64,000 bases of DNA from Thermoanaerobaculia bacterium (GTDB lineage Bacteria; Acidobacteriota; Thermoanaerobaculia; Multivoradales; UBA5704), in NCBI GenBank assembly GCA_035266085.1, contig DATFNZ010000229.1:9129-73128 (forward strand), read 5' to 3'. The translations under genes were made by a program, and so were the position numbers. This document shows, one piece after another, positions 2,490 through 40,914 of the stretch. Under the pieces are notes generated by a model. The model worked only from the letters and a program-made list of their open reading frames with translations, was not told the DNA's origin and searched no databases. Numbering within the stretch: position 1 is the stretch's first letter; the number at the start of each line of letters is the position of its first letter.

Positions 2490-3464
2490 ATGAAGACCGT
2501 TGGTTACGAAGAGATCAGAGAGCGGGTCCGGCTGGAAAACGTCATCGATCCGGTTCGTGAATCCTTCAAGAGCTATTCCGCCGGCAAGGCGAACATTCCC
2601 GCCGTTCAGCACCTGGAGATGCCGACCTGCCGCAGCGGCGCTCTGCACATCAAGACCGGCCACGTCGAGCCGTTTCCCTTCTGCCTCGTCAAGGTGGCTT
2701 CCACCTTTCCCGAGAACACCCGGGAGGTGCCCTCGAAGCCGTCGATCAACGGCGTGATCGTCGTTTTCAGCACGTACGACGGCGAGCCGCTGGCGATCCT
2801 CGAGGACCGGGCCTGGATCACGCAGGTCCGCACCGCCGGCGCCGGAGCCGTGGCCGCGGAGCTGCTGGGCAGGCCCGGCTCCCGTACCCTGAGCGTGGTC
2901 GGCGCCGGCACCCAGGCGCGCCTGCAGACGCGTGGACTCCTGCACGTCTGCCCTGACATCGAGCGGATCCTGGTGTGGGGACGCACGCCCGCGAACGTCG
3001 ACCGCTACGTCGAGGAGATCGGCGCCGCCTATCCCGGCGTGGAGCTGGCGGCCGCGGAGACGGTCGAAGAGGTGGCGCGCGAGGCGGACATCCTGGTGAC
3101 CACCACCTATTCCACCCAGCCCCTGGTGCAGGGGGATTGGCTGCGGGAGGGAGTCCTGGTCATCGGCATGGGCGCCGACGCCGTCCACAAGCTCGAGCTC
3201 GACCCGGCGTGCCTCGCCGACATGGACCGGGTGATCGTCGACAGCCGTTCCCAGAACGTCAAGATGGCCGAGATCGGCTGCGGCATCCGCAGCGGCTTCT
3301 TCGGGGCGGACCGGATCGACGCGGAGATCGGCGAGCTGCTGCTGGCCGGCGGAGCGGGCCGGCGCTCGGACGAGGAGAGGATCGTCTGCAAGCTGACCGG
3401 CGTGGCCGTGCAGGAGATCTTCGTTTGCGAGTTCCTACTGAAGGAGCTAGGGATCGTGCATTGA
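2490..3464 (+). CDS. ornithine cyclodeaminase / mu-crystallin family protein
   Basis: 324 aa with a Rossmann 'VVGAGTQARLQ' motif and overall OCD/mu-crystallin-like layout. GAAAGGA lies upstream of the ATG. Confidence 0.75.
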   Translation: MKTVGYEEIRERVRLENVIDPVRESFKSYSAGKANIPAVQHLEMPTCRSGALHIKTGHVEPFPFCLVKVASTFPENTREVPSKPSINGVIVVFSTYDGEPLAILEDRAWITQVRTAGAGAVAAELLGRPGSRTLSVVGAGTQARLQTRGLLHVCPDIERILVWGRTPANVDRYVEEIGAAYPGVELAAAETVEEVAREADILVTTTYSTQPLVQGDWLREGVLVIGMGADAVHKLELDPACLADMDRVIVDSRSQNVKMAEIGCGIRSGFFGADRIDAEIGELLLAGGAGRRSDEERIVCKLTGVAVQEIFVCEFLLKELGIVH

Positions 3465-3471
3465 GGGCAGG

Positions 3472-5274
3472 CTAAAACGTGTCGCTCGTCGACACCAGAT
3501 ACTGCACGCGCTCGATCGACGAGCTCCCGTCCAGGGGAAACGCCACGTCGAGGTGCAGCACGGCGCCGCGGGAGGAGCGGCTGGAGCCCAGGCGCAGGCC
3601 GAGTCCGGCGTCCTTGAGGATCCGGCGCTCCTGATAGAAGCGGGCATCCAGCTTCGACAGGGGGCCCACGAACCAGGCCTGGCCGGCGTCGAAGAAGACG
3701 GCGCCCCCGAGGTGGGCGAGGTGGAAAATCTCGCGGTCGCTGAAGAAGCGCTGCTCGAGGGTGAGCAGGACGCGGCGGTCGCCGGCCTGATAGCGGAGGG
3801 GATAGCCGCGCAGGCCGCTGTCGCCGCCCAGGAGGAGCTGGTCCTCGCCGTCCAGACGGTGGGCCAGGTCGGCGCCGAGCGAGGCGTAGAAGATGTGCTC
3901 GCCGAAGTCGCGGGCGTACCAGCGGACGCGCCCGCCGGCGGTCAGGTCCTCGGCGTCACCCGCCGCCCAGCGGGTGGAGCCGCCGACCTGGGCCAGCACG
4001 AGGTTGCGGGCGGTGGGCCGCCAGCCGGCCGAGAACGCGCTCTGGACGATCAGGCGCTCGCCATCGCCGCCGAAGGCGGGGGAGGACCAGCCGAGGAGGA
4101 CGTTGTACTGCCGGCCCAGGTTCAGGTCCTCCGCGCGCTGGAAGCGGTTGAGGTCGCGCTCCACGACGAAACGGTCCTGCACCGACTCGAAGCCGATCCA
4201 GGGATAGACCAGCGTCCGGTTCTCGGGGGCGTCGAAGAGCTGCTGCTGCGGCAACTGCGCTTTCGGGATCAGGAACGGGAACTGCAACGGGCCCAGCGAC
4301 GAGCGCACGAAGGTGTCGGTCGAGTAGGTGACGCCGAGCCGGAAGCGCCGCGCCGTCCCGTTCACCAGTCCCGGGGAGAGGCCGCCGTAGACCTCCACGA
4401 AGTCGTGCCGGTGCTCGAAGTTGGTGACGACCTTGCCCGCCTTGTAGAGGTTCTCGACACGCTCGTCCCGGAAGCTGCGCAAACCGGCGCTCCAGCGGGA
4501 GGAGAGGGAGTAGAAGGGCCGCTCCAGCTCGAAGCGCGTGCGCCCGCCGTCGCTGTTGTCGGCGTACGACGCCGTCAGCCGCACGCGGCTTCCCAGCACG
4601 TTGGGATCGCGGTAGCGGACGAGGTTCGAGGTCCGGTCCACCGTGCCGATCCGCGACAGCGAGATCTCCTTGCCGGTGCCGAGGAAGTTGGTGTCCTCCA
4701 GCGAGAAGCTGGTGTTGTTCTCGCCGCCCGAACGGCTGAAGCTCGCGCCTCCCTGGAGCGTCCACAGATCGCGCGTCGTCACCTCCACGTCGACCTTGCC
4801 GTCGTCCCGCAGGACGGGCTTGAGGTCCACGTCGTAGAGGTAGTCGTTGCGCCGCAGCAGGCGCGCGGACTCGGCGATCAGCTCGGGGGAGAACACGTCT
4901 CCCGGCTGGAACAGGAGCTGCCGCTCGATGACCACCGGCCGGGTGGTGCGGTGCAGGCGGTTGGCCAGGCGGAAGATCTTCCGGTCCTCGCCGGGCCGGG
5001 CCGAATCGAAGATGTCCTTGGCGTTCACCCGTACCTCGCCGATGACGCTCCCTGGAGGGATCGCCGGCGCGCCCTGCACCTCCAGCCCGGTGCCGAGGAC
5101 GGGCGTCTCCGAAGCTGCCTGGGTGCGGAGCCACGGGAGGAGGTTGGGGGACGGCTGAGCCGCCGCCGGTTGCGGGCGGCCCGAGAGGCAGAGGCTGAAG
5201 AGCGCCGCGGCCGCCGTGAGGCGTAGAGCGCGGCTGGAGACTGGCGGGCGGCGGTGGCCGCGGCTCGAACCCAT
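3472..5274 (-). CDS. Omp85/BamA-family outer-membrane protein (POTRA plus surface-antigen barrel)
   Basis: N-terminal signal-like 'AAALFSLCLSG...AAA'. A POTRA-like segment (VIGEVRVNAKDIF...VDVEVTTRDLWTL) is followed by a long beta-rich region. It ends in an aromatic residue (...STSDTF). Confidence 0.65.
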   Translation of the reverse strand: MGSSRGHRRPPVSSRALRLTAAAALFSLCLSGRPQPAAAQPSPNLLPWLRTQAASETPVLGTGLEVQGAPAIPPGSVIGEVRVNAKDIFDSARPGEDRKIFRLANRLHRTTRPVVIERQLLFQPGDVFSPELIAESARLLRRNDYLYDVDLKPVLRDDGKVDVEVTTRDLWTLQGGASFSRSGGENNTSFSLEDTNFLGTGKEISLSRIGTVDRTSNLVRYRDPNVLGSRVRLTASYADNSDGGRTRFELERPFYSLSSRWSAGLRSFRDERVENLYKAGKVVTNFEHRHDFVEVYGGLSPGLVNGTARRFRLGVTYSTDTFVRSSLGPLQFPFLIPKAQLPQQQLFDAPENRTLVYPWIGFESVQDRFVVERDLNRFQRAEDLNLGRQYNVLLGWSSPAFGGDGERLIVQSAFSAGWRPTARNLVLAQVGGSTRWAAGDAEDLTAGGRVRWYARDFGEHIFYASLGADLAHRLDGEDQLLLGGDSGLRGYPLRYQAGDRRVLLTLEQRFFSDREIFHLAHLGGAVFFDAGQAWFVGPLSKLDARFYQERRILKDAGLGLRLGSSRSSRGAVLHLDVAFPLDGSSSIERVQYLVSTSDTF

Positions 5275-5299
5275 GCAAGGGACTCCGTAAGTGGGACCG

Positions 5300-7027
5300 T
5301 CAGTTTGTACGGATCATATCCCGAGACCGTCGCGGACGCGACCACCGCAGGCTCGATCCGTCCCTGATCTCGATCAGGAGCTCGGGCGAGTAGGTGCTCC
5401 AGCCCTCCGGCGCCTGGTACTTGATCCTCAGCGGCAGCACCGGGACCTCCGGCGCATCGAACCCGGCGCTGCGCGGCATCTCGAAGACCTCGGCGCCGTG
5501 GCCAAGGATGAACCAGTAGGTGCCGTCCTGGTAGGGGCCCAGCTCCCAGAAGAGGTCGTCGCCGGAGACCTGGAAGCTGGCGCTCAAGGGGGCGCCTGAG
5601 CGGATCGAGGAGCAATGCCGCTCCCTCAGCACGGGGATCCGAGAGGTGAGATCCACCACCCGGCGCTCGCCCGGATCGTAGCCCCACACTCGTCCCAAGG
5701 GCTCTGGGTGGGCGCAGAGATACAGGTCGTCCTGGAACCAGCGCTCCCCCGTGGGACGGTGGAAGACGTTCTCCTTCATCCACCGCAGCTCCTTGAGGGA
5801 GGCCGCCAGGGTGAGCGGCTGCCGCAGGACGTCTCCCGCCTTCATGTCGAGGAGGGCGCGGTTCTCGGCGCTCATCCGCTCGACCCGGGCGAAGCGGTGG
5901 CTCCAGTCCTGCCGGTTCACCCACAGGCCCGCGGCGCAGGCCACCAGGACGACGACGGCGCCGGTCCTGCGGCCCAGGCGGCTGCCTCCCGCCGCGAAGG
6001 CCGCGCACAGGGCGATCCAGGCCGGCACGGCGTACCGGGGCTCCATTCGGGTCGAGACCGGCAGCACCGGCAGCACGGCGAGGAGCAGCCCGAGGCCGGT
6101 CAGGGCGGCCGCCCGGCGGTCTCGCAGGACGAGCGCCAGGATTCCCATGGCCAGCGCGGCGCAGAGCGCGGCCGCCGCCCACGAGAACCGGCCGGCCATG
6201 AGCTCCGCCGCGATCTTGCCGGGCATTGCCAGGGCGAGAGCGGGCAGGCCTGAGGGCGCCACGGTGAAGCCGTAGCCGCCCAGCAGCGTGCCGAGCACCC
6301 CGTAGCGCAGGCCGAGATAGAGGCCGAGCGCGGCGGCATGGGGCAGAGCCAGGCGGAGCCGCTCGCGCAGGCTCACCGGCCTGCCGCCGGCCGGCTCCGG
6401 CAGCAGGGGCAGGAGAGCGGCCAGGGGCACCGCGATCTCCTTGGCGAGGGAAGCGGCGAAGTAGAGCGCCGCCGAGAGCGCGGCCAGCCCCCAGGCTCGC
6501 CGCCTGGGCCATCGCCGCAAGGCCGCTGCCCAGGTTCCCAGGGCCATGGCGGCAAGGAGAATCGACTCGGCGTAATGGCGGACCATGAGGAGCGGCGCGA
6601 GCGAAGCGGCCACCGGTCCGGTCAGGAAGACCCAGGCTCCGGCCGCCGCCCACAGGCGGCGGAGCCAGAGCCGCAGGACGCCGTACAGCACGGCGGGGCA
6701 GAGGGCGAAGGCCAGGAGCTGATGGAGATAGAACAGGTAGGGATCCAGGCCGAACAGGCGCCGGTCCGCGTCGAGGGAGAGGAAGAGCAGGGGTGTGAAG
6801 ACCCCGGCCGGAAAATCCCGGAATCCCTCGGCGTCGAACAGGTACCACCCGGGCCGGTGGGTGAGCAGGAAGCGGAAGTGGTGGAAGTCGTCGTGCGTCC
6901 ACCAGAGCCCGAGCACGGAGCCGTAGAGCAGCCAGGCGGCCCCGGCGAGAGCCAGGGCGAGCCCCGCGTCGGCCGCGAGGCGCCGGGCTTCGGGACGGTT
7001 CCGCGTGAGCACCGGCCGCGTGAGCAC
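5300..7027 (-). CDS. polytopic inner-membrane protein, GT-C/PMT-like fold suspected
   Basis: 575 aa. The N-terminal two thirds contain many hydrophobic helices, followed by a soluble C-terminal domain. No specific catalytic motif was recognised. Confidence 0.45.
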   Translation of the reverse strand: MLTRPVLTRNRPEARRLAADAGLALALAGAAWLLYGSVLGLWWTHDDFHHFRFLLTHRPGWYLFDAEGFRDFPAGVFTPLLFLSLDADRRLFGLDPYLFYLHQLLAFALCPAVLYGVLRLWLRRLWAAAGAWVFLTGPVAASLAPLLMVRHYAESILLAAMALGTWAAALRRWPRRRAWGLAALSAALYFAASLAKEIAVPLAALLPLLPEPAGGRPVSLRERLRLALPHAAALGLYLGLRYGVLGTLLGGYGFTVAPSGLPALALAMPGKIAAELMAGRFSWAAAALCAALAMGILALVLRDRRAAALTGLGLLLAVLPVLPVSTRMEPRYAVPAWIALCAAFAAGGSRLGRRTGAVVVLVACAAGLWVNRQDWSHRFARVERMSAENRALLDMKAGDVLRQPLTLAASLKELRWMKENVFHRPTGERWFQDDLYLCAHPEPLGRVWGYDPGERRVVDLTSRIPVLRERHCSSIRSGAPLSASFQVSGDDLFWELGPYQDGTYWFILGHGAEVFEMPRSAGFDAPEVPVLPLRIKYQAPEGWSTYSPELLIEIRDGSSLRWSRPRRSRDMIRTN

Positions 7028-7038
7028 CGGGGAAGCGC

Positions 7039-7449
7039 CTACGATTCGAGGCCCTGTTCGAGGTCACGGATGCGGGGGGTGAGCCGCTTGATCTCCTCCA
7101 GGTGCAAAGCCGCGAGCTGCTGGAGGATCGCCGCTCCGCGCGGCGTCAGCCGCAGGCGCACGACCCGGCGGTCCCCGGGGTCCTCGTGCCGCTCCACCAT
7201 TCCCGACTTGACGGCCCGGTCCACCAGCCCCACCGCGCTGTGATGGCGCAGCAGCAGGTAGCCGGCGACGTCGCCGATCGTCGGGCCCTGGTCGCCTTCG
7301 TGCCCGCGCACGGCCAGCATGAGCTGGTGCTGCGCCGCGGTCAGCCCTGCCTTCTCGGCCTGCTCCTCGCTCCAGTGCAGGAAACGCCGCAGCCCTGTCC
7401 GGAACTGGAGCAGCCGCCGGTAGTCGGCGTCTTCCAGATCGCGATTCAT
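7039..7449 (-). CDS. MarR-family transcriptional regulator
   Basis: 136 aa with a winged-HTH pattern 'LTAAQHQLMLAVRGHEG...GPTIGDVAGYLLLRHHSAVGLVDRAVKSGMVERHEDPGDRRVVRLRLTPRG'. Confidence 0.85.
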   Translation of the reverse strand: MNRDLEDADYRRLLQFRTGLRRFLHWSEEQAEKAGLTAAQHQLMLAVRGHEGDQGPTIGDVAGYLLLRHHSAVGLVDRAVKSGMVERHEDPGDRRVVRLRLTPRGAAILQQLAALHLEEIKRLTPRIRDLEQGLES

Positions 7450-7481
7450 GCCCTGAGTTTAGCGCACTGAAACGGCGGCGG

Positions 7482-8666
7482 TCAGGCGCCGGCCGGCCAG
7501 GCCCGCTGCTGGGCGAGGGTCGCCTCCCAGTGGGCCTTCACCTCGGCCATCGAGTCGCCGCCCAGCTTCTCGAGCAGGGCGTCGGCAAGGACGAGGGCGA
7601 CCATGGCCTCGGCGATCACGCCGGCCGCGGGGAGGGCGGTGACGTCGCTGCGCTCGTATTGCGAGGTGTGGGGCTCCAGGGTGTCGAGATCGACGCTGGG
7701 CATCCCCTTGCGCAGGGTGGCGATCGGCTTCTTGTAGGCAGTGATCACCAGGTCCTCGCCGTTAGTGACGCCGCCCTCGAGGCCGCCGGCGCGGTTGGTG
7801 GGACGGGTCCAGCGGCCGTCCGCCGTGCGCTCGATGGGGTCGTGGGCGGCGCTGCCGAAGCCGCGGGAGGCTTCGATGCCGGCGCCGATCTCGACCGCCT
7901 TGACGGCGTGGATCGAGAGGATCGCCTGGGCCAGGCGGCCGTCGAGCTTCTCGTCCCACTGCACATGGGAGCCGAGCCCCACGGGCACGTTGCGGGCGAT
8001 CACCGTCACCGCGCCGCCCAGCGTGTCACCGTCCTCCTTAGCCTGCTCGACCAGCCGGACCATCTCGGGCTCCAGCTCGCGGTCGATGGCCCGCAGGGGG
8101 GAGGTCTCGTCGACCTGCAGGAGGTCGTCCCAGGTGGGCACGGGCCGGTCGGCGCCGATCGGCCCCAGGAAGCGGACGCCGCTGCGGATCTCGACGCCGA
8201 CCTCGGCCAGGAGCATGCGGGCGAGGGCGCCGGCCGCCACGCGGGCGGTGGTCTCGCGGGCCGAGGCCCGCTCGAGGATGTCGCGCAGGTCCCGCCGCTG
8301 GTACTTGATCCCCCCCGCGAGGTCGGTGTGGCCCGGCCGCGGCGACTTCAGGCGGCGCGTCTCGGCCAGGCGGGGATCGACGGCCTCGGGGCTCATCATC
8401 GGCTCCCAGCTCACGTAGTCGCGGTTGGCGATCCAGAGCACGACGGGGGAGCCCAGGGTCTCGCCGCCGCGCACGCCGCCGCGGATCTCGGCGGTGTCCT
8501 TCTCGATCTGCATCCGCCGGCCGCGCCCGAAGCCGTGCTGGCGGCGGGCCAGGTCGCCGGCCAGGACGTCGAGGTCCACCCGCAGTCCCGCGGGCAGTCC
8601 GGTGAGGATCGCGGTGAGGCCGGGACCATGGCTCTCCCCGCCGGTGATCAGTTGGAGCCGGCGCAT
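7482..8666 (-). CDS. aroC: chorismate synthase
   Basis: 'MRRLQLITGGESHGPGLTAILTGLPAG', 'RPGHTDLAGGIKY' and 'GGSMAEV'-type C-terminus are classic AroC signatures. Confidence 0.95.
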   Translation of the reverse strand: MRRLQLITGGESHGPGLTAILTGLPAGLRVDLDVLAGDLARRQHGFGRGRRMQIEKDTAEIRGGVRGGETLGSPVVLWIANRDYVSWEPMMSPEAVDPRLAETRRLKSPRPGHTDLAGGIKYQRRDLRDILERASARETTARVAAGALARMLLAEVGVEIRSGVRFLGPIGADRPVPTWDDLLQVDETSPLRAIDRELEPEMVRLVEQAKEDGDTLGGAVTVIARNVPVGLGSHVQWDEKLDGRLAQAILSIHAVKAVEIGAGIEASRGFGSAAHDPIERTADGRWTRPTNRAGGLEGGVTNGEDLVITAYKKPIATLRKGMPSVDLDTLEPHTSQYERSDVTALPAAGVIAEAMVALVLADALLEKLGGDSMAEVKAHWEATLAQQRAWPAGA

Positions 8667-8686
8667 GGCGGCAAGGATATCAGTCC
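8664..8686. repeat. direct repeat copy 1 (aroC start region: CATGGCGGCAAGGATATCAGTCC on + strand)
   Basis: It has the same 14-mer (AAGGATATCAGTCC) and the same CATGGC as copy 2 at 13469..13492. In both cases the repeat ends with the ATG of a minus-strand gene. Confidence 0.8.
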
Positions 8687-11600
8687 GCCGCCACGGGCGC
8701 CGCCGCCGGCCGCGCCGCCTTCCGCTCCCGCGCCGCCCTCGACTCGTAGAGCTGGTAGAGGAAGTCGTAGAGCACCAGCTCGTGGACCCTGGCGGCCGAG
8801 CGGATCATCCGGTTGATGTGCATGTGGACGTAGCTGGGCGCCAAGTCGGCCACTGAGTGAGTCAGGCGGCCGGCGCTCTCCCTCTCCCGGAGCTCGGCGA
8901 CGATCGGCGCCAGGCGCTCCGAGCGCCGGTGGAGCACGGCCAGGGCGGGAGCGAGATCGCTCGTCTCGTCGCCGCTGCGATCGAGCAGGGGCGTCAGGCT
9001 GCGTGATTCCTGGCGGAACCTCTGATCGAGCTGGACCCGCAGCCCCTTGCCGCCGCCGAACTCGCGCGCGAACCCCTCGCGCATGCCGCGCATCACCCGC
9101 GTCTTCGTCTCCGAGTCCAGACCGAGATCCGCCAGCAGCATGTCGGTGCCGCGCAGAGTGAGGCGCCAGCGCAGGTCCGCGCCCTCGTCGCCCTCCAGCA
9201 TCTCGAGGATCTCCAGCACGGCTTCGCTGTCCGCCTGGAAGAGGCGCTCGGAGGGGAGCATCCCCTCCGGGCCGCCATAGCGCTCGACCTCGCGCTCGTA
9301 GGTGTCGAGCTGCATCCGCCAGAGCCGGCCGTCGGCGAGGAGCGGATCGATCGCGGCGTGGAGGCGCGGCAGGGTGCGCCCGTGGAGGGCGGCGGGATCG
9401 CCATGGAGGCGCACCCGCAGGTGCCACTCGGGATCGCTGTAGCGGATGAAGAACCAGCCGTCCGCAGCGCCCTCGCCCAGAGCCTCGCGCACCACCGGCG
9501 TCACGACCTCGCGCAGCAGGCCGTCGGCGGTGGAGGTCCCCGTGTAGAGCTTGACGTACAGCCACTCGGAGCCCGGCGGGAAGGAGCGCCGGACCGGGGT
9601 AGGACGGTTCTCTCCTCTCTCCCGGACCGTCGGGGGAGAGGCCGGGAGGGCGGGGTTGGGGGGCTTGCGCACGAAGGGCACCAGGATCTCGTGCAGGAAG
9701 CGCCCCTCGGGGCCGGCCGCGGGAAGCTGATCGGGGCCGGGGAAGAACTCGACGATCCGGGCGCGGTCGCGGTCCTCCGCGACGTCGAGGAAGGTCTCGA
9801 CGGAGAGCACGTTGTCGAGGTCCACGAGCAGCTCGTTGTCGTTGTCGACCAGGGCCACGAGCCGTGGGAGCCGCCGTTGCTCGCGCCATTCCCGCACGGC
9901 CAGGAAGCGCTCCGCGCCTTTGGTTTTGACCAGCGCCTTGATCTCGTCCCCGGTCATCCACCAGGAGGCGCGGGCGAGGACCAGCTTGCCGCTGGTGACC
10001 CGGGGCAGGAAAGGCGCGCTGTCCAAGGGGCCCCAATTCCACATCATGCCGCCCATCACCTCCTGCGACTGCAGCATGCAGAGGAAGCGGTAGACCCCGA
10101 GGCTGCCGAACACGAAGTTGTGGGCGCTGGTCAGGCGGGGGATCACCTCTTTGCCCAGCCGCGCCGAGCGCAGCACGATCCGGTTGCCAGCGACCGACAC
10201 CCGCAGGTCGCCGAGGGGGATCTGCATCTCCGGAGGAGCGCCGGAGCGGCCGAGGAAGGGGATCTCGTAGCCGCGCAGGACCGGCCGGGCCAGGATGTTG
10301 CCGATGCGCCCCTGCGGCAGGTGGACGACCTCCGCGAAGACGGCGCCGGGCCGCAGCGCCTCCTCGGCCCGCAGGTGCTCCTCGACGTGCCGGCAGAGGA
10401 CCGGGTCGGCGTGGCAGAAGCGTCCCAGCAGCCGGGCCCCGGAAGGACCGCCCATGTTCTCGAGGAGGATCTGGAAGTCGCCCCGCTCCAAGGCTTCCGG
10501 CCCGGCCGCGGCCACCGAGAACATGGTGTGGAACGCGTCTGGGATCGGCTGCTTCTGCGCCTGGCTTTCGGCGGGCGCCATGCGCTCCAGGTCCTCGGCC
10601 GTGATCTCGATCTCCCGCGCTCCCCGCGCCAGCGCGTCGTGGAGCTTGCCGAGCAGCACCGTCTGCGTGCGGCCCCAGGGGACGGTGGGATCGGCGCCGG
10701 CGGGCGCGCCCACGGCGATGCCGCGCAGCAGGGGAGAGGCTTCGGCCCCGGCGTCGGAGGAGCGGTCGAAGCCGATGCCGACCTCCTCGTCCAGCGCTTC
10801 CAGCAGCGGCACCTCGCGGTTCTCGTAACGCTCGGAAAAAGCCTTGCGGAAGCGGTCGAGGCTCTCGATCGGGCGGTCAACGGCGAGGCGGATGAGGATG
10901 TCGAGGCCGCGGGCGACCTCCGCCATCACGGCCTCGCCGAGGGCCGGCTGGTCGCCGGGCTTGACCATGTCGAGCTGGAAGAGGCGCGACATCTCGACCG
11001 AGGTCGGCAGCTCCTTCAGGCTCTCGGCGATCGCCTCGTAGCGGGCGGGCGGCGCGCCGGGGCCGCCGGCGTCCAGCTCCTCAAGCGCGGCGCGGGCCTG
11101 GGCCAGCCGCTCGGCCGCCCCGGCCGCGACAGAACCGGGGGGAAAGCGGCTCAACTGGTCGATGACGTCGTGGATGGCCTCGGGGCCGGTGACGGCGGTG
11201 GAGAGGCCGGAGACCAGGATCTGGCTGTCGATCAGCTCGGTGACGAACTCCGCCGCCTCCTCCGGCGTCACTTCGCCGTCGGGATCGAAAGCCACCAGCG
11301 CCTCGGCGATCTCGCCGGCGCGCGCGCCGCCGCCGGCGCGGCGGAGGGCCTCCTCCAGGTAGTCGTTGTCGTCGACGGCCACCAGGTGGTGCGAGCGGGT
11401 CTTCTTGTCCAGCCGCGCCTCGGCGTAGCGCAGCCGCCCGCCGGCGCGGTAGAGGCTCGAGTTGGGGTGGTAGACCAGCGCCTCGCGCACCGCCGGGTCC
11501 TTCGCCAGGTCCTCGCAGAGGGCGAAGAGGTAGTCCATGTCGAGCCGCGTGTGCCGCTCGTAGCTGGAGCGGGGAGCCACGGCGATGCGGGAGGGCGTGC

Positions 11601-12003
11601 CGGGAGCGGTGTCGACCCGGCCCACCGAGCAGCCGGAGAACAGGCCGAAGGGGGTGGCGCGGGCCGCCATGCGGTAGACGTAGCGCACCAGCGCCCGCTC
11701 GGCGCGCTGCCCCTTCTTGCTCTCCGGCTGGGCCCGCCAGGCGTTCAGGCTCTCGTAGAGCGACGGCGAGGCCAGGAACACGGCCTCGAGGACCTCGGGG
11801 CGGGCCGCCAGCTCGGCGAGGCGGGCGCGCAGCCGCTCGCGGTCGGCGGCCAGGGCCTGCTCCAGGCGCTCGGGGTCGGCGAGAGCCGCCGGCGCTTCGA
11901 GCCCCTCGCTCCAGGCCTCCAGCTCCTCGAAGGGGAGCAGGGGAGTGCGGAAGGCGAAGAAATCGTTGGCGATGAAGGGGCGTTCCCGCTCTGTCTTAGC
12001 CAT
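8680..12003 (-). CDS. full-length LanB-type lantibiotic dehydratase (N-terminal dehydratase domain plus C-terminal SpaB_C/thiopeptide-type elimination domain)
   Basis: N-terminus 'FFAFRTPLLPFEEL' is typical of the Lant_dehydr_N domain. C-terminus 'WLYVKLYTGTSTADGLL...DGWFFIRYSDPEWHLRVRLHG' is typical of SpaB_C/TIGR03891. The preferred start is the ATG at 12003, which overlaps the upstream RNB stop by 8 nt (ATGGCTAA). The track start at 12042 is also possible. Confidence 0.85.
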   Translation of the reverse strand: MAKTERERPFIANDFFAFRTPLLPFEELEAWSEGLEAPAALADPERLEQALAADRERLRARLAELAARPEVLEAVFLASPSLYESLNAWRAQPESKKGQRAERALVRYVYRMAARATPFGLFSGCSVGRVDTAPGTPSRIAVAPRSSYERHTRLDMDYLFALCEDLAKDPAVREALVYHPNSSLYRAGGRLRYAEARLDKKTRSHHLVAVDDNDYLEEALRRAGGGARAGEIAEALVAFDPDGEVTPEEAAEFVTELIDSQILVSGLSTAVTGPEAIHDVIDQLSRFPPGSVAAGAAERLAQARAALEELDAGGPGAPPARYEAIAESLKELPTSVEMSRLFQLDMVKPGDQPALGEAVMAEVARGLDILIRLAVDRPIESLDRFRKAFSERYENREVPLLEALDEEVGIGFDRSSDAGAEASPLLRGIAVGAPAGADPTVPWGRTQTVLLGKLHDALARGAREIEITAEDLERMAPAESQAQKQPIPDAFHTMFSVAAAGPEALERGDFQILLENMGGPSGARLLGRFCHADPVLCRHVEEHLRAEEALRPGAVFAEVVHLPQGRIGNILARPVLRGYEIPFLGRSGAPPEMQIPLGDLRVSVAGNRIVLRSARLGKEVIPRLTSAHNFVFGSLGVYRFLCMLQSQEVMGGMMWNWGPLDSAPFLPRVTSGKLVLARASWWMTGDEIKALVKTKGAERFLAVREWREQRRLPRLVALVDNDNELLVDLDNVLSVETFLDVAEDRDRARIVEFFPGPDQLPAAGPEGRFLHEILVPFVRKPPNPALPASPPTVRERGENRPTPVRRSFPPGSEWLYVKLYTGTSTADGLLREVVTPVVREALGEGAADGWFFIRYSDPEWHLRVRLHGDPAALHGRTLPRLHAAIDPLLADGRLWRMQLDTYEREVERYGGPEGMLPSERLFQADSEAVLEILEMLEGDEGADLRWRLTLRGTDMLLADLGLDSETKTRVMRGMREGFAREFGGGKGLRVQLDQRFRQESRSLTPLLDRSGDETSDLAPALAVLHRRSERLAPIVAELRERESAGRLTHSVADLAPSYVHMHINRMIRSAARVHELVLYDFLYQLYESRAARERKAARPAAAPVAAD

Positions 12004-13471
12004 TGCGTTCCCGGACGAAATCGATGAACCCGCGCTCGACATCGGTGGAGACCAGGCGTACGCGCACCCGGTCGGCCACGTCGAGCCCTTCGAAGCCGCG
12101 CTCGAGGCGGCCCTCCACCACGGGATGCCTGAAGGTGCGCACCCAGGTGCCCTTCTCGGATGCGCCGGTGACGATGGCGTCGAAAGTATCGCCGACCCGG
12201 CTCTGGATCAGCAGGGCCGCCGCCGACTTGCGCACCTGCCGCTCCACCTTGTTGGCGGCGTCCTCCTGGAGCGTGCAGTGGCGGGCGAGCTCCGCCAGCT
12301 CGTCCATGGCGTAGGGAGCCGGCTTGCCGGCGAACGCCGCCTTGAGCAGCCGGTGGGTGATCAGGTCGGGATAGCGGCGGTTCGGGGCCGTGGCGTGGGT
12401 GTAGTCCCGCACCGCCAGGCCGAAGTGTCCGGGCGGCTCGCCGCCCGGCGGATCGACGGCGTACTCGCCGGGCCCCATCAGCTTGATTACGGAGAGCGAC
12501 AGCTCGGGGAAGCCGTCCGGATCCTCCCGCCGGCGTCCCTCCAGGAACAGGTTCAAGGCGCGGGCGTCGGCCTCCTCCGGGAGGTGCCCGCCGAGCTCCG
12601 CGGCGAGCTGGACGATGCGCGGCCAGCGCTTGGGCGTGTGCACCACGCGGCGCAGCGAGGGCAGGCCGTGGCCGTCCAGATAGCGGGCCGTGACGCCGTT
12701 GGCGGCGACCATGAAGTCCTCGATCAGCTCCTTGGCGCGGTTCTGCCGGTCCTCCCTGAGGTCGGTCACCACGCCGTCGACGAAGACCGGCCGCGTCTCG
12801 GGGGTGTCGAGGTCCAGGGCCCCCTGCTCGTAGCGCAGGGCGCGCAGGCGGGAGGCGGCCTGGTCCTGGAGCCGGACCTGCTCGTCGATCCCCGGCACGT
12901 CCGCCATGCGCGGCGGCATCGGGCCGTCGCCTTCGAGCCACGCGGCCACGGCGTCATAGGCCAGCTTGCAGCGGTTGTGGACCCAGGCGCGGTAGATGTC
13001 CGAGTTCGCCAGCGAGCCGTCGGCGGACACCGTCATCTCGATCACGATGGCCAGCCGGTCCTCGCCGTCGTTGAGCGAGGTCAGGTCGGTCGAGAGGCGC
13101 TCGGGGAGCATGGGGAAGACGCGGGCGGCGGTATAGATCGAAGTGGTGTTGGTGCGCGCGTGGTCGTCGACGGCCGAGCCGAGCCGCACCAGGGCGTCGA
13201 CGTCGGCGATGGCGACCCGCAGCCGGATGGCGTCGCCGTCCTGGGCCTCGGCCACTTCGAGCTGGTCGAGGTCGCGGCTGTCGTCGTTGTCGATGGAGGA
13301 CCAGAGCAGCTCGCGCAGGTCGCGGATGGAGGAATCGCGGCCGGGCTTCTCGGGCTGCAGCCGCTCCGCCTCGGCTATGGCCGCGGGCGGAAAATCGGGC
13401 TCCAGGCCCCTCTGCTCCATGGCGCGGCGGGCGATCGCTTCGAGACTGTGGGAATGGCGTCCGGAATTCAT
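11996..13471 (-). CDS. RNB-domain exoribonuclease (RNase II/R family)
   Basis: 'HFGLAVRDYTHATAPNRRYPDLITHRLLKA' is the RNB catalytic motif, and the C-terminus is S1-like. I prefer the start at 13471 (MNSGRHSH...). The track start at 13570 would leave no room for a promoter before the divergent M4 gene. Confidence 0.8.
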   Translation of the reverse strand: MNSGRHSHSLEAIARRAMEQRGLEPDFPPAAIAEAERLQPEKPGRDSSIRDLRELLWSSIDNDDSRDLDQLEVAEAQDGDAIRLRVAIADVDALVRLGSAVDDHARTNTTSIYTAARVFPMLPERLSTDLTSLNDGEDRLAIVIEMTVSADGSLANSDIYRAWVHNRCKLAYDAVAAWLEGDGPMPPRMADVPGIDEQVRLQDQAASRLRALRYEQGALDLDTPETRPVFVDGVVTDLREDRQNRAKELIEDFMVAANGVTARYLDGHGLPSLRRVVHTPKRWPRIVQLAAELGGHLPEEADARALNLFLEGRRREDPDGFPELSLSVIKLMGPGEYAVDPPGGEPPGHFGLAVRDYTHATAPNRRYPDLITHRLLKAAFAGKPAPYAMDELAELARHCTLQEDAANKVERQVRKSAAALLIQSRVGDTFDAIVTGASEKGTWVRTFRHPVVEGRLERGFEGLDVADRVRVRLVSTDVERGFIDFVRERNG

Positions 13472-13492
13472 GGCCGGGAAGGATATCAGTCC
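13469..13492. repeat. direct repeat copy 2 (RNB start region: CATGGCCGGGAAGGATATCAGTCC on + strand)
   Basis: See copy 1. It differs only in a 3-4 nt central patch that includes one indel. Confidence 0.8.
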
Positions 13493-13581
13493 CTCACCTC
13501 CCCGACTCGCCCCCCGGGGGAGAAGAGGGGGAAAGGCTCGGATTGCGTTAAAATATCTGCACACCCTCAAAAGGAGACGCC

Positions 13582-15234
13582 GTGCCGCCCAAGAAAGGCC
13601 TGCGGAGCTTCGCCTTCCACCGCGACGAGAGCGCGGCCTCGCCGGCGCTCGCCGCGGCCCTGGCCGCCCGGCCCGCCGCGGCCCTGCCGGGAGAGCGCCT
13701 GGCCACCATGGAGCCCGAGCGGGCCGCCCGGATCCTGCTGCAGAACGCGCTCGATAGCGACGGTCTGCCCGGGTTCACCTCTCCCGAGGTGGACGCCGGC
13801 GCCGCCGAGTTCAAGCTGGCCGGCCACCGCAAGCTCCTCCTGACCAACTCGCAGACCGTCAAGTTTCTCCAGTTCTACCGCGACGTCCCGGTCTACGGAT
13901 CGCTGATCACGGTGGAGATGGACGCGCGCAACCGGCTGCTCTCCATCAATTCCGCCCTGGGCGCGCCGGCGGGCGTCGATGCCCTGGCGGACGTTTCGCC
14001 GGCAGACGCCCTGGCGACGGTCTCCAGGGCCGCGGGGTATGGAACCGAGCTCCCGGACGTCCAGCCACAGCTCTCCTTCTATTTCGAAGGCGGCGCCGGC
14101 ACCTGGCATCTCGCCTACATCGCGGAGAACGTGCCCCAGAGGCAGGGCGGAGCCGCGGACGACGACCACCATCTGCCGCAGGTCTTCGACTACGTCGTCG
14201 ACGCCAACACCGGGGATCTGATCGCGGCCCTGCCGCGCACCCAGACGGCCGAGCCGCTGGAGTCGGAGGCCCTCGACGGCCTCGCCGTCATGCGCAAGTT
14301 CCGCTGCTCGGACGTCCCCGGCAAGGGGAAGTGCCTCGCCGACCCCCACTCCGGGGTGCAGACCCACGACTTCGCCTTCAACTCCGTGGAGATGGATCAG
14401 GCCCTGCTGCCGGGAGAGCCCGTCCTGCTCAAGGACCCGGACTCCTGGGACCCGGCGGCGGTGAGCGCCCACGCCAACGCCGCCGAGGTGGCCGACTTCC
14501 TTGAGCGGGTGCTGATGCGGAAGGGGATCGACGGCGAGGGCGGCCCCCTCATATCGAGCATCAACTGCGTCCGCCGCCTGGGCGCTCAGGAGTGGCGCAA
14601 CGCGGCCTGGATCAGCACCCAGATGGTCTACGGCCAGCGGCTGCTCGACGGCAAGCTGCTCTCCTATGCCGTGTCCCGCGACGTGGTGGCCCACGAGATC
14701 TTCCACGGCGTGACCGAGCATTCCGCCCGCCTCGACTACCTGGCCGAGAGCGGAGCCTTGAACGAGTCGTACTCCGACATCTTCGGCATCCTGATCTCGA
14801 ACTGGCGGCAGTCGGACTTGGAGAAGTGGAACTGGCAGATCGGCGAGGAGCTGGACGGCACGGGCCTGCCCCTGCGCGACCTCTCCGATCCCGAGAAGTG
14901 CAAGCAGCCCGCCCACATGAAGGACTACCAGGACCTCCCGGTCACCCAGGCGGGCGACTGGGGAGGCGTGCACGTCAACAGCGGCATCCACAACAAGGCG
15001 GCCTACAACCTCCTGACGGCGAAGCCCGACGGCAACTACGCCTTCGACCCGGCGACGGTGGCCAGGCTCTTCTACCTGACCCTGACCGAGCAGCTCTCCC
15101 GCACCTCGGGCTTCAGCGACAGCCGCCGCGGGCTGGAGCTGGTGGCCCGCAGCCTTTTCCGCACCGATCCGGACCGTAACGTCAGGCTCGCCGCCATCAT
15201 CCAAGCCTTCGAAGACGTCGGCATCGAGCGTTAG
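13582..15234 (+). CDS. M4 (thermolysin-like) zinc metallopeptidase with N-terminal propeptide
   Basis: HEXXH 'VVAHEIFHGVTE' plus 'ESGALNESYSDIFG' (third zinc ligand Glu) and 'GGVHVNSGIHNKAAY'. AAAGGAGA lies upstream of the GTG start. Confidence 0.9.
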   Translation: MPPKKGLRSFAFHRDESAASPALAAALAARPAAALPGERLATMEPERAARILLQNALDSDGLPGFTSPEVDAGAAEFKLAGHRKLLLTNSQTVKFLQFYRDVPVYGSLITVEMDARNRLLSINSALGAPAGVDALADVSPADALATVSRAAGYGTELPDVQPQLSFYFEGGAGTWHLAYIAENVPQRQGGAADDDHHLPQVFDYVVDANTGDLIAALPRTQTAEPLESEALDGLAVMRKFRCSDVPGKGKCLADPHSGVQTHDFAFNSVEMDQALLPGEPVLLKDPDSWDPAAVSAHANAAEVADFLERVLMRKGIDGEGGPLISSINCVRRLGAQEWRNAAWISTQMVYGQRLLDGKLLSYAVSRDVVAHEIFHGVTEHSARLDYLAESGALNESYSDIFGILISNWRQSDLEKWNWQIGEELDGTGLPLRDLSDPEKCKQPAHMKDYQDLPVTQAGDWGGVHVNSGIHNKAAYNLLTAKPDGNYAFDPATVARLFYLTLTEQLSRTSGFSDSRRGLELVARSLFRTDPDRNVRLAAIIQAFEDVGIER

Positions 15235-29306: not shown

Positions 29307-29561
29307 ATGAACGCCGTCACCCTGAAGGACGCCAAGCTCAATCTGGAACGGCTCGTCGAGCAGGTCATCGCGGACGCGGAACCCACAATCATCGTTACCG
29401 ACAGCGGCGAGCAGGTCGTGTTCCTGCCGCTCGATGAGTACAACTCCTGGAAGGAGACCCTCTACCTGCTGGCGAATCCCGCCAACGCGGATCACCTGCG
29501 CCGGTCGATCGCCGAGGCCCAGGCCGGCAAGGTGCAGGAGCGAGAGCTCCTCGAAGCATGA
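29307..29561 (+). CDS. yefM: Phd/YefM-family antitoxin
   Basis: 'VTLKDAKLNLERLVEQV...PTIIVTDSGEQVVFLPLDEYNSWKETLYLLANPANADHLRRSIAE' is a classic YefM pattern. Confidence 0.9.
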   Translation: MNAVTLKDAKLNLERLVEQVIADAEPTIIVTDSGEQVVFLPLDEYNSWKETLYLLANPANADHLRRSIAEAQAGKVQERELLEA

Positions 29562-29818
29562 AGTTGGGCTTCACACCCGCCGCATGGGAAGACTACCTCT
29601 GGTTCCAGGACCATGACCGGAAGCTTCTGAAGCGGATCAACTTGCTGATCAAGGATACCCTCCGCACCCCGTTCTCAGGCATCGGCAAGCCGGAGCCCCT
29701 CAAGGCCGACCTGGCAGGGTACTGGTCCCGCCGGATCAGCGACGAGCACCGCCTGATCTATACCGCGACTGCGACCGACGTGACGATCATCGCCTGCCGG
29801 TACCATTACTCGAAGTAA
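29558..29818 (+). CDS. yoeB: YoeB/Txe-family mRNA-interferase toxin
   Basis: 'FTPAAWEDYLWFQDHDRKLLKRINLLIKD..RTPFSGIGKPEPLK..LAGYWSRRISDEHRLIY...IIACRYHY'. ATGA overlap with yefM. Confidence 0.9.
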   Translation: MKLGFTPAAWEDYLWFQDHDRKLLKRINLLIKDTLRTPFSGIGKPEPLKADLAGYWSRRISDEHRLIYTATATDVTIIACRYHYSK

Positions 29819-39418: not shown

Positions 39419-40390
39419 GTGACAGAATCCGCTCCGATGGCCACAGCCCCGGTTCTGACCCGCGAATCGCCGTTCGCCCGGCGGCTCTCCGCCTATCTGG
39501 CGGAGCGCTTCCCGCTGGCGAGCCACGGGCTGCTGATCGCCGCCTACTACTCCTCGAACCAATTCCTGGCCCGCACCCTGACGGAACCGGGGCGGCCGAT
39601 GCACTACGACTGGACGACCCTGCTCGGGGCCCTGACGCTGCTCTGCTTCTTCTTCCATCTGCGGGTCTTCGACGAGCACAAGGACTACGCCGAGGACCTC
39701 GTCCACTACCCCCGCCGGGTGCTGCAGAGCGGGGTGGTGACCCTGCGGCACCTGAAGCTGCTGGGCGGCCTCGCCATCGCGGCCGAGATGGCTCTCTCGG
39801 CCCTGCGCGGCCCGGCGGCCTTCGTGGCCTGGCTCGCCGCCTTCCTCTTCTCGGTGCTGATGCTGAAGGAGTTCTTCGTCCCCGGCTGGCTCAAGCGGCA
39901 CTTCCTGGTCTACGCCGTGAGCCACCTGCTGGTCATGCCGCTGCTGGCCCTGATGGTGTTCAGCTTCGCCACCGGCCGCTGGCCCTGGGAGGCGCCTTTC
40001 TGGTTCGGGGTCTACGCCTGGGTAGGCTTCTTCGTGACCTTCAACTGGGAGGTATCGCGCAAGATCCGGGCGCCGGAGGACGAGATCGAAGGGGTGGAGA
40101 CCTACACGCGCGTCTTCGGCACCTACGGCGCGGCCTATATCGTGCTCCTGATCCGGGTGATCGACACCGCGCTCGTGGCCCTGGTCGGCTGGCACCTCGG
40201 GCTGCCGCCGTGGTTCTACGGGGCCCTGGTGGCGCTTTTCCTGGTCTGCCTGGTCGGCTTCTTCCAGTACCGGCTCAACACCCACCGCAAGACGGCCAAG
40301 AGGATGGAGATCTACGCCGGCATGTACGTCATCGCGTTCGACGTGATCCTGGCGGTGGCGATCGTGGCCCGGTACGGGGTGCGGGTATGA
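39419..40390 (+). CDS. UbiA-superfamily-like polytopic membrane protein (putative prenyltransferase)
   Basis: About 8 hydrophobic helices. 'FDEHKDYAEDL' and 'PEDEIEGVETYTRVFG' resemble the two Asp-rich UbiA motifs. Confidence 0.5.
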   Translation: MTESAPMATAPVLTRESPFARRLSAYLAERFPLASHGLLIAAYYSSNQFLARTLTEPGRPMHYDWTTLLGALTLLCFFFHLRVFDEHKDYAEDLVHYPRRVLQSGVVTLRHLKLLGGLAIAAEMALSALRGPAAFVAWLAAFLFSVLMLKEFFVPGWLKRHFLVYAVSHLLVMPLLALMVFSFATGRWPWEAPFWFGVYAWVGFFVTFNWEVSRKIRAPEDEIEGVETYTRVFGTYGAAYIVLLIRVIDTALVALVGWHLGLPPWFYGALVALFLVCLVGFFQYRLNTHRKTAKRMEIYAGMYVIAFDVILAVAIVARYGVRV

Positions 40391-40418
40391 TCCGCGAGCG
40401 CCAGGGCTCGCGGATCAT
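40387..40418. terminator. 12-bp perfect-stem hairpin (ATGATCCGCGAG-8 nt-CTCGCGGATCAT) between convergent genes
   Basis: The stem is 40387-98 / 40407-18. It overlaps the stop of 39419..40390 (+) and lies 13 nt downstream of the stop of the peptide gene at 40431..40616 (-). Confidence 0.6.
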
Positions 40419-40430
40419 AGGACGAGACCT

Positions 40431-40616
40431 TCAGCAGAACGTTGAGACGCCGCAGGCGCGACCATCTGTTGCGCAGGTCGTGCAGTTCGTAGCGCAAATG
40501 GTCACGCAGACGGATCTCTCGGTTGCGACGGCGCCGAGGACGTTTTCCAGGCGACTCGCCTCCAGGTTGACGAGGGTTTCTTTGGTGAGCCTGAGTTTCT
40601 TGGACCACTTCTTCAT
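40431..40616 (-). CDS. RiPP-type precursor peptide 1 (double-glycine-type leader, Cys/Thr-rich core)
   Basis: 61 aa 'MKKWSKKLRLTKETLVNLEASRLENVLGA/VATERSVCVTICATNCTTCATDGRACGVSTFC'. Strong SD (GCAAGGAGAGCTCC-ATG). The leader is homologous to that of the neighbouring peptide. Confidence 0.65.
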   Translation of the reverse strand: MKKWSKKLRLTKETLVNLEASRLENVLGAVATERSVCVTICATNCTTCATDGRACGVSTFC

Positions 40617-40651
40617 GGGAGCTCTCCTTGCTACGGGGTGGGAGTCTGAGC

Positions 40652-40679
40652 GGTCCGCGAGTGTCAGGCCTCGCGGACC
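40652..40679 (-). promoter_or_regulatory. intercistronic 10-bp-stem hairpin between the two precursor genes (attenuator/processing-site candidate)
   Basis: GGTCCGCGAG-8 nt-CTCGCGGACC. It shares the TCCGCGAG/CTCGCGGA core with the hairpin at 40387..40418. Confidence 0.45.
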
Positions 40680-40703
40680 ATGAGGAGACTCTTCAGAGTA
40701 GGT

Positions 40704-40844
40704 CTAGCAAAGGGCGCAGGCGGTGTTTGCGCAGTTCGTGCAGGCGGATACGGTTCCGCCGCCGAGTACATTCTCCAAGGAGCCAGTCTCCAGATGAAGG
40801 AGGGTTTCCTTCGCGAGCGTGAGCTTCTTCGGCATCTTCTTCAT
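40704..40844 (-). CDS. RiPP-type precursor peptide 2 (double-glycine leader, Cys/Thr-rich core)
   Basis: 46 aa 'MKKMPKKLTLAKETLLHLETGSLENVLGG/GTVSACTNCANTACALC'. Strong SD (ACAAGGGAGACCTC-ATG). The longer track ORF (to 41045) would run antisense into the neighbouring gene. Confidence 0.65.
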   Translation of the reverse strand: MKKMPKKLTLAKETLLHLETGSLENVLGGGTVSACTNCANTACALC

Positions 40845-40914
40845 GAGGTCTCCCTTGTCTCTCGTTGCGGGGCGAATCGCCCAGCAAGCTAGTGAAGAAT
40901 AGCTAAGAGTCCCC

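Follow-up and report, generated by a model that had tools for sequence, protein, structure and literature searches.

A LanB dehydratase in a housekeeping-type operon as the probable shared enzyme for dispersed class I lanthipeptide precursors in a soil Thermoanaerobaculia genome

Introduction

The closest described class I lanthipeptide systems to the one discussed here are NisB/NisC and MibB/MibC (NAI-107; PDB 4WD9, 5EHK), which combine a full-length two-domain dehydratase (LanB) and its catalytic residues, a separate cyclase (LanC) with zinc-ligand motifs, and precursors with Ser/Thr/Cys-rich cores. The same features are found in a soil Thermoanaerobaculia (Acidobacteriota) genome (7.8 Mb, 239 contigs, 97% complete). 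The LanB gene of this genome lies on a 64,000-nucleotide stretch of contig DATFNZ010000229.1 (assembly GCA_035266085.1, positions 9,129 to 73,128), referred to as the window. In contrast with the NisB/NisC and MibB/MibC systems, no cluster unites the enzyme, cyclase, precursors, and exporter, and one LanB stands against ~26 precursors on ~21 contigs. The LanB gene is located in a housekeeping-type operon, and the leaders are of the LxLxKx5L...GG type instead of FNLD.

Precursor genes remote from their enzyme are known from the prochlorosin system, which comprises the class II enzyme ProcM and ~30 ProcA precursors, many of them encoded far from procM. Both systems have one enzyme, here a predicted one, and dozens of mostly remote precursors with a shared leader and diverse cores. 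A tRNA-dependent LanB and a separate LanC are present here, in contrast with a bifunctional, ATP-dependent LanM there; similarly, an L1a leader in a soil acidobacterium contrasts with a Nif11 leader in marine cyanobacteria. As prochlorosin biosynthesis is defined by LanM and Nif11, the present system is not a member of that family, but would follow the same strategy with a different class of enzyme.

The leader LxLxKx5L...GG has been described for class I LanAs of Bacteroidetes that are associated with C39 proteases (Walker et al. 2020, PMC7268733). The leader motif, the GG end, and the presence of C39-peptidase exporters in the genome are shared with these Bacteroidetes-type precursors (NF038153), while the precursors described here are found in Acidobacteriota, are massively expanded, and are remote from LanB. 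The open-access literature searched yielded no paper on such a class I architecture, nor any account of dispersed class I systems from Acidobacteriota.

The LanB of the window is probably the single shared enzyme for the ~26 scattered precursors, its position next to a gene for a short RNB-family ribonuclease being a matter of inherited gene order. The comparisons that lead to this reading rely on 25 genomes of the genus, including that of the window, which sit within a 41-genome search of the order, and on an evenly drawn class-level sample of 151 Thermoanaerobaculia genomes. Protein families were searched in Pfam and NCBIfam, and structures were compared through PDB sequences. Labels beginning with G denote genomes (G000 is the window's genome), L denotes LanB loci, and C denotes contigs.

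An intact class I dehydratase

The LanB gene (8680..12003, minus strand) encodes a full-length class I lanthipeptide dehydratase of 1107 amino acids. The open reading frame counted from the first ATG is slightly longer (8680..12042, minus strand; 1120 amino acids). The 'MAK' start at 12003 is kept in 16 orthologous loci, several of which have a stop codon upstream of MAK, and the protein is therefore taken as 1107 amino acids. An earlier sequence-only reading of the window proposed that the protein carries both domain signatures of a full-length LanB, and the family searches agree. The glutamylation domain Lant_dehydr_N (PF04738) covers residues 80-750 with 575.5 bits (profile positions 1-648 of 649), and the elimination domain Lant_dehydr_C/SpaB_C (PF14028) covers residues 827-1099 with 238.3 bits (profile positions 1-255 of 255); the respective motifs, FFAFRTPLLPFEEL and WFFIRYSDPEWHLRVRLHG, are both found in the translation. 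In NCBIfam, TIGR03891 matches the protein at 235 bits, and the top PDB match is MibB with 195 bits. Lant_dehydr_N occurs exactly once in the whole genome, in this LanB.

The catalytic residues of NisB (listed in PMC4341554) provide a reference for the active site. In a direct phmmer alignment to NisB (4WD9), the elimination-site residues R786, E823, R826, H961, and R966 are each matched by the same amino acid, with HLRVR of the window's LanB equivalent to HIRLR786, YEREVERYGG to YDQE823VER826YGG, and VHMHINR to IH961VHNNR966. The glutamylation-domain motifs R-x3-R-x-T-P-F-G, R-x-D-M, Q-x-D-M, and G-R-F are present in alignment with MibB, the corresponding stretches RMAARATPFGLF, RLDMDYL, QLDM, and GRF being aligned with both MibB and 9G04.

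Among the other 24 genomes of the genus, 20 have an ortholog with 73-82% identity, and LanB is a vertically inherited gene. Pairwise dN/dS against eight orthologs ranges from 0.21 to 0.35, values probably inflated by the extreme bias in GC content at third codon positions, and is not higher where an adjacent LanC is missing. The gene thus reads as intact and under purifying selection, and the suggestion that it might be a decayed remnant finds no support in its sequence.

Precursor genes dispersed across the genome

The sequence-only reading supposed that the LanB substrate is either encoded at a distance or is not a classical lanthipeptide precursor, and pointed to two Cys/Thr-rich peptides ~28 kb from LanB (40431..40844), which are the nearest precursors. 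Both are class I lanthipeptide precursors encoded on the minus strand. The first, of 46 amino acids (40704..40844), consists of MKKMPKKLTLAKETLLHLETGSLENVLGG followed by GTVSACTNCANTACALC and matches NF038153 (lant_leader_L1a, class I lanthipeptide) with 24.0 bits at a cut-off of 22; the second, of 61 amino acids (40431..40616), consists of MKKWSKKLRLTKETLVNLEASRLENVLGA followed by VATERSVCVTICATNCTTCATDGRACGVSTFC and matches with 23.4 bits at the same cut-off. The leader of both peptides follows the pattern MKKxxKKLxLxKETLxxL...GG/GA. A hidden Markov model (HMM) of this leader, trained on 18 leaders from the window's own genome, detects the two peptides with E = 1.6e-11 and 2.2e-12, respectively.

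The two peptides belong to a much larger set. A regular expression recovers ~20 copies of the leader in the window's genome, and the HMM recovers ~26 matches on ~21 contigs. The cores tabulated (n=24) each contain 3-11 Cys and 3-14 Ser/Thr, amounting overall to 17% Cys and 24% Ser/Thr. Four of seven tested precursors exceed the NF038153 cut-off and two more fall just under it, while Pfam yields no match to the precursors. The distant location of the substrate is thus supported, with the qualification that the two peptides of the window are merely 2 of ~26 candidates, and the notion of a non-classical substrate can be dropped, since the precursors carry the classical class I L1a leader. With the same regular expression, the leader is also found within a few kb of LanB homologs at more than 25 other fetched loci, including the orthologous loci L036/L053, L041, and L076.

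The relatives with LanB carry 12-63 precursors each. The largest set, of 63, is found in G015, a genome assembled as a single 7.7-Mb contig, in which the listed precursor matches span 0.15-5.6 Mb with LanB at 2.97 Mb.

A modifying enzyme encoded beside the precursors was considered and rejected. Clustering of ~150 flanking open reading frames from 23 precursor loci revealed no recurrent enzyme gene. The weak recurrences, each at two to three loci, are an ECF-sigma-like gene and a ~1000-amino-acid protein taken as a kinase, neither of them confirmed by a family search. LanC-like genes are absent from the precursor contigs with the exception of C17, where the leader match is a single, low-scoring one.

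The precursors of the window are situated between genes for a UbiA-like membrane protein and a 909-amino-acid enzyme resembling PEP synthase and rifampin phosphotransferase (39419..43644). This slot contains 0-3 precursors in LanB-positive relatives and none in the LanB-negative genomes G009 and G010, and the two flanking genes adjoin without precursors in some relatives. Precursor turnover seems to be concentrated at this slot as a hotspot. Elsewhere in the genome, two adjoining precursors (G000:C168:4929-5446) stand out by the unusual length of their cores, which contain (GGT)n-like Gly/Thr repeats and close with a duplicated 'TFE(I/R)xSGCATNC' end; only one of these precursors is matched by NF038153 at E <= 0.01.

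Co-occurrence of LanB and the precursors

The distribution of the leader follows that of LanB. In the genus, all 21 LanB-positive genomes have 12-63 leader matches, while the four LanB-negative genomes, of which G004 and G010 are 99% complete, have none. Beyond the genus, the LanB-positive genomes of the order display 44 (G025), 7 (G027), 1 (G030), 3 (G040), and 0 (G029) matches, and no LanB-negative genome in the 41-genome search has any. At the scale of the class, 20 of the 151 sampled genomes are LanB-positive, 14 of them with leaders, and leaders are absent from all 131 LanB-negative genomes.

The class sample also indicates how the dispersed arrangement arose. In family f14, a single precursor is located directly beside LanB, and at least 24 copies are found only in genera g1, g17, and g2; the limitation of large expansions to these three genera implies that the dispersed architecture is derived. 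The LanM enzymes provide a control, as a LanM is encoded in G004, where precursors are lacking, and the 30 precursors of G014 are found in a genome devoid of LanM. It is LanB, and not LanM, that the precursors follow.

The co-occurrence could also reflect nothing other than shared ancestry, with one joint loss in one subclade and maturation of the peptides by an unrecognized enzyme. The grouping of G004, G009, and G010 in a tree of RNB and AroC is consistent with this explanation, as is the lack of a recurrent enzyme adjoining the precursors. It is nevertheless very improbable given the absence of the leader from every LanB-negative genome at class scale, the f14 precursor directly beside LanB, and the curation of NF038153 as a class I leader.

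Cyclases, exporters, and the fate of the adjacent LanC

A genome-wide search for cyclases and precursors, as recommended in the sequence-only reading, recovers seven LanC-like matches in addition to the ~26 precursors. When the LanC found at the LanB locus of relatives is used as the query, it recovers only one gene in the window's genome (G000:C35:13582-14889) at 51% identity. This C35 LanC is a stand-alone protein of 436 amino acids with the motifs AHG, WCYG, and CHG (LANC_like, 129 bits), flanked by an alpha/beta-hydrolase-like gene and a putative protease, both identified by eye. Orthologs of the C35 LanC with 65-79% identity are present alongside the locus LanC in at least eight LanB-positive members of the genus. 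A class I-type LanC at E < 1e-40 was found in none of the four LanB-negative genomes.

Contigs C64 and C6 each carry one C39-peptidase ABC transporter, and these two could cleave GG leaders. Class II LanM genes are located at G000:C64:21727-29986 and G000:C106:61268-66136; one of the two adjoins a C39-peptidase ABC transporter, and the other adjoins another stand-alone LanC-like gene.

No LanA, LanC, or LanT adjoins LanB, and the contig of the window contains neither a LanC-like match nor either of the two C39 transporters. The absence of adjoining LanC and LanT described in the sequence-only reading therefore stands, and the locus does not qualify as a co-localized class I cluster. The description of the LanB as an orphan is accurate only in this local sense, since most orthologous loci have an adjacent LanC, a few have a precursor, and the genome encodes a stand-alone LanC on C35.

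The absence of adjoining partners allows for the explanation that LanB is a stranded remnant, either inactive or producing linear dehydrated peptides, while the precursors are served by other enzymes or by none. The missing LanC, the distance of at least 28 kb to any precursor, and the two LanM enzymes of the genome fit this explanation, which is nonetheless unlikely. The LanB frame is intact, the checked catalytic residues are all present, and dN/dS does not exceed that of LanC-retaining relatives. Furthermore, the adjacent LanC has been lost independently in at least three lineages, all of which keep LanB and 25-52 precursors, which argues that a stand-alone LanC suffices; the adjacent LanC would have been dispensable three times because a conserved second LanC exists. 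The precursors, moreover, follow LanB rather than LanM.

History of the LanB locus

The LanB gene is tightly packed between its neighbors. The end of the RNB gene (...CGC AAT GGC TAA) overlaps the LanB start (ATG GCT AAG) in another frame by the 8 nucleotides ATGGCTAA, and the LanB stop TGA is followed, after 13 nucleotides, by the ATG of aroC at 8666. Gaps along the string of RNB, LanB, aroC, MarR, a 575-amino-acid protein, and an Omp85-like protein do not exceed 32 nucleotides. All three spacings match those given in the sequence-only reading. Both LanB junctions are spanned with zero differences by Logan contigs from the source soil-metagenome run; as these derive from the same reads, only a mis-join is excluded.

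RNB directly precedes LanB at every orthologous locus. At most of these loci, the LanB-aroC interval contains, on the opposite strand, a gene for a LanC of ~435 amino acids with the hallmarks WCYGDLG and CHGAAG, and at L036/L053, L041, and L076 a precursor gene is also found in this interval. The adjacent LanC is absent from the window's genome (G000), G014, and G012, as well as from loci L055 and L080. G000, G014, and G012 are on separate, well-supported branches of the RNB+AroC tree, and their LanC-less junctions differ (a 13-nucleotide gap, a 32-nucleotide gap, and an overlap); the LanC deletions are therefore independent. The window's lineage has lost its adjacent LanC by deletion, and the locus is not primitively orphan.

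The four LanB-negative members of the genus reveal the underlying arrangement. RNB abuts aroC in G004 and G010, while in G009 the two genes are separated by an unrelated 3-kb insert, in which no LanB or LanC relics are found and whose one small open reading frame was read, without a family search, as a ribbon-helix-helix antitoxin. In a sister clade with LanB identities of 61-64%, the gene order is LanB-[LanC]-RNB-aroC. The backbone of the locus is RNB-aroC-MarR, with the LanB/LanC module lodged inside.

At L035, L042, and L068, a second, shortened LanC-like open reading frame (282-291 amino acids) is located beside the full-length LanC in the LanB-aroC gap. It retains N- and C-terminal parts with the middle gone, which suggests tandem duplication followed by internal deletion.

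The short RNB ribonuclease

The gene overlapping the LanB start (11996..13471, minus strand) encodes a short RNB-family 3'-5' exoribonuclease paralog of 491 amino acids (PF00773, 280 bits; PF18614 (S1), 59 bits). As in E. coli Rnb/Rnr and a short Deinococcus RNase II-type protein (2R7D), the RNB catalytic domain is followed by a C-terminal S1 domain, and the HFGLA and RRYPD motifs are kept. In contrast with RNase II/R, the short RNB has no N-terminal cold-shock domains, carries a DLDQ variant of motif I, and is accessory to a canonical RNase R. The protein scores under all RNase R and RNase II equivalog cut-offs in NCBIfam, and its alignment to E. coli RNase R covers residues 158-582. Motif I reads DNDDSRDLDQ in all orthologs compared with ...DFDDA in canonical RNase R, so that the last Asp is replaced by Gln and three of the four catalytic-site Asp residues are kept (DxxDxxRDxDQ). 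A separate RNase R-like gene with an open frame of 781 amino acids is located on C176 of the window's genome, and such a second gene, with open frames of ~750-810 amino acids, is present in nearly all searched genomes.

The sequence-only reading regarded the coupling of a tRNA-dependent enzyme to an exoribonuclease as unusual and proposed a comparison of homologous neighborhoods. This comparison reveals that the RNB-LanB pair is kept in the genus, yet RNB persists without LanB. Every one of the 24 other members of the genus, the four LanB-negative ones included, carries the short RNB at 63-80% identity, and it is retained in LanB-negative genomes at 76-80% identity with the same motifs. It appears to be limited to the genus and the sister clade, with aroC as its constant neighbor. 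Because LanB-negative genomes keep RNB, in G004 and G010 directly abutting aroC, the short RNB is an accessory paralog independent of LanB. No RNB gene is found within ~8 kb of non-orthologous LanB loci, whether these belong to paralogs of the same order or to homologs in Myxococcota, Actinomycetota, and Bacteroidota. As RNB is kept without LanB and LanBs elsewhere lack RNB, the LanB-RNB neighborhood is attributed to descent.

A functional pair of RNB and LanB, in which the tRNA(Glu) co-substrate pool or the mRNAs of the precursors would be the target of RNB and stoichiometry would be set by translational coupling, has several features in its favor. ATGGCTAA or a longer overlap and the order RNB to LanB are kept in all LanB-positive members of the genus, the genes remain together in the rearranged sister clade, and RNB is an accessory paralog beside a canonical RNase R with an invariant motif I variant. 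Such a pair is unlikely all the same in view of the retention of RNB in LanB-negative genomes, the equally persistent linkage of aroC and MarR, which indicates block synteny, and the absence of RNB from other LanB loci. As an addition to the shared-LanB reading, a functional link between the tRNA-dependent step and the short RNB, translated together with LanB, has an equally slight chance of being correct. The RNB-LanB overlap most likely represents operon packing and inherited gene order rather than shared function.

Neighboring genes and the start-region motif

Downstream of LanB, aroC encodes chorismate synthase (7482..8666, minus strand; NF003793, 389 bits, over the cut-off). It is followed on the same strand by a MarR-family regulator (7039..7449; PF12802, 44.7 bits), which is syntenic in relatives, a 575-amino-acid protein (5300..7027), described as a membrane protein in the sequence-only reading and negative in Pfam and NCBIfam, and an outer-membrane protein with POTRA and Omp85 matches (3472..5274). 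A promoter and terminator scan of 3300..13800 yielded nothing exceeding shuffled expectation and is thus uninformative for this phylum.

The 12-mer ACTGATATCCTT is found at two start regions on the minus strand (13479..13490 and 8673..8684), its only copies in the 7.8-Mb genome. The first copy sits 7 nucleotides 5' of the RNB ATG; the second lies before the ATG of aroC and shares nucleotides with the stop of LanB. A ~24-nucleotide repeat before RNB and aroC was considered as an insertion scar, and a repeat search gave it no rank. The form TGATATCCTT(G/C)CC..ATG is found before aroC in several relatives irrespective of the upstream gene, as well as before a few other genes, and the insertion scar is therefore ruled out in favor of a start-region element. 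The ACTGATATCCTT/TGATATCCTT element is possibly specific to the lineage and involved in translation start or regulation.

Divergent from RNB, a thermolysin-like M4 metallopeptidase is encoded on the plus strand (13582..15234; Peptidase_M4_C, 122 bits; M4, 70 bits; FTP propeptide); it adjoins RNB in some relatives (L029, L031, L041, L051) but not in all. Further along the window, overlapping open reading frames of 84 and 86 amino acids (29307..29818, plus strand), read from their translations alone, resemble a YefM/Phd antitoxin and a YoeB/Txe toxin. This putative toxin-antitoxin pair is flanked by ribD-like and riboflavin-synthase-like genes.

A proposed pathway and points against it

In the proposed pathway, LanB would glutamylate Ser/Thr residues of L1a-leader peptides from Glu-tRNA(Glu) and then eliminate glutamate, acting in trans on the ~26 precursors across the genome, two of which are in the window. 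Class I dehydratases of distant phyla frequently depend on their cognate tRNA (PMC9993889). The C35 LanC would cyclize the dehydro-residues onto the abundant Cys, and one or the other C39-peptidase ABC exporter would probably remove the GG leader during export. The LanB(+LanC) module would have been accommodated inside an older RNB-aroC-MarR string, and deletion of LanC would have left LanB as a fused part of the operon. Expression of LanB would then be at a housekeeping level, together with RNB and aroC, and each precursor would be under its own regulation. The link between LanB, the C35 LanC, and the precursors is suggested by family membership, linkage in related genomes, and phyletic co-occurrence.

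Several observations weigh against this pathway. Identity between the C35 LanC and the LanC at the locus of relatives is only ~51%, and the partnership of the C35 LanC with LanB is inferred. The genome encodes two LanM and other LanC-like proteins, which could in principle use some of the precursors. Six LanB-positive genomes of the class sample and G029 have no L1a leaders, so that the presence of LanB is not invariably accompanied by this leader. The LanB-negative genomes G004, G009, and G010 share a clade (support 0.97; inner nodes unresolved) with the LanB-positive G018, so that a single loss may account for the absence of LanB and the precursors. The putative equivalence of LanB motifs to the glutamylation-site residues R83, R87, T89, D121, D299, and R464 of NisB was derived from motif spacing through the MibB alignment. 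Finally, the public runs holding the sequence are DNA metagenomes only, and no expression run was found among them.

Implications for class I lanthipeptides

At the scale of the genus and at least two neighboring genera, the balance of the evidence leans moderately toward a class I counterpart of the prochlorosin system. Such a counterpart would comprise one vertically inherited LanB in a housekeeping operon, one or two LanCs acting in trans, and 12-63 dispersed precursors that are regulated individually and whose Cys/Ser/Thr cores are hypervariable, the whole set being purged upon loss of LanB. The survey by Walker et al. covered seven genes on either side of a LanC-domain protein (PMC7268733). 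With a range of this size, an 'orphan' LanB would be reported and dozens of cognate precursors per genome would be missed, and a large, concealed reservoir of class I lanthipeptides may thus exist in uncultured soil genomes of this kind.

The LanB-positive and LanB-negative species within one genus provide a natural experiment on the joint gain, expansion, and loss of a trans-acting enzyme of RiPPs (peptides made by the ribosome and modified after translation) and its precursors. If the proposed reading is true, a LanB/LanC pair that handles 12-63 differing cores would be naturally promiscuous and may be useful for peptide engineering, as ProcM is for class II.

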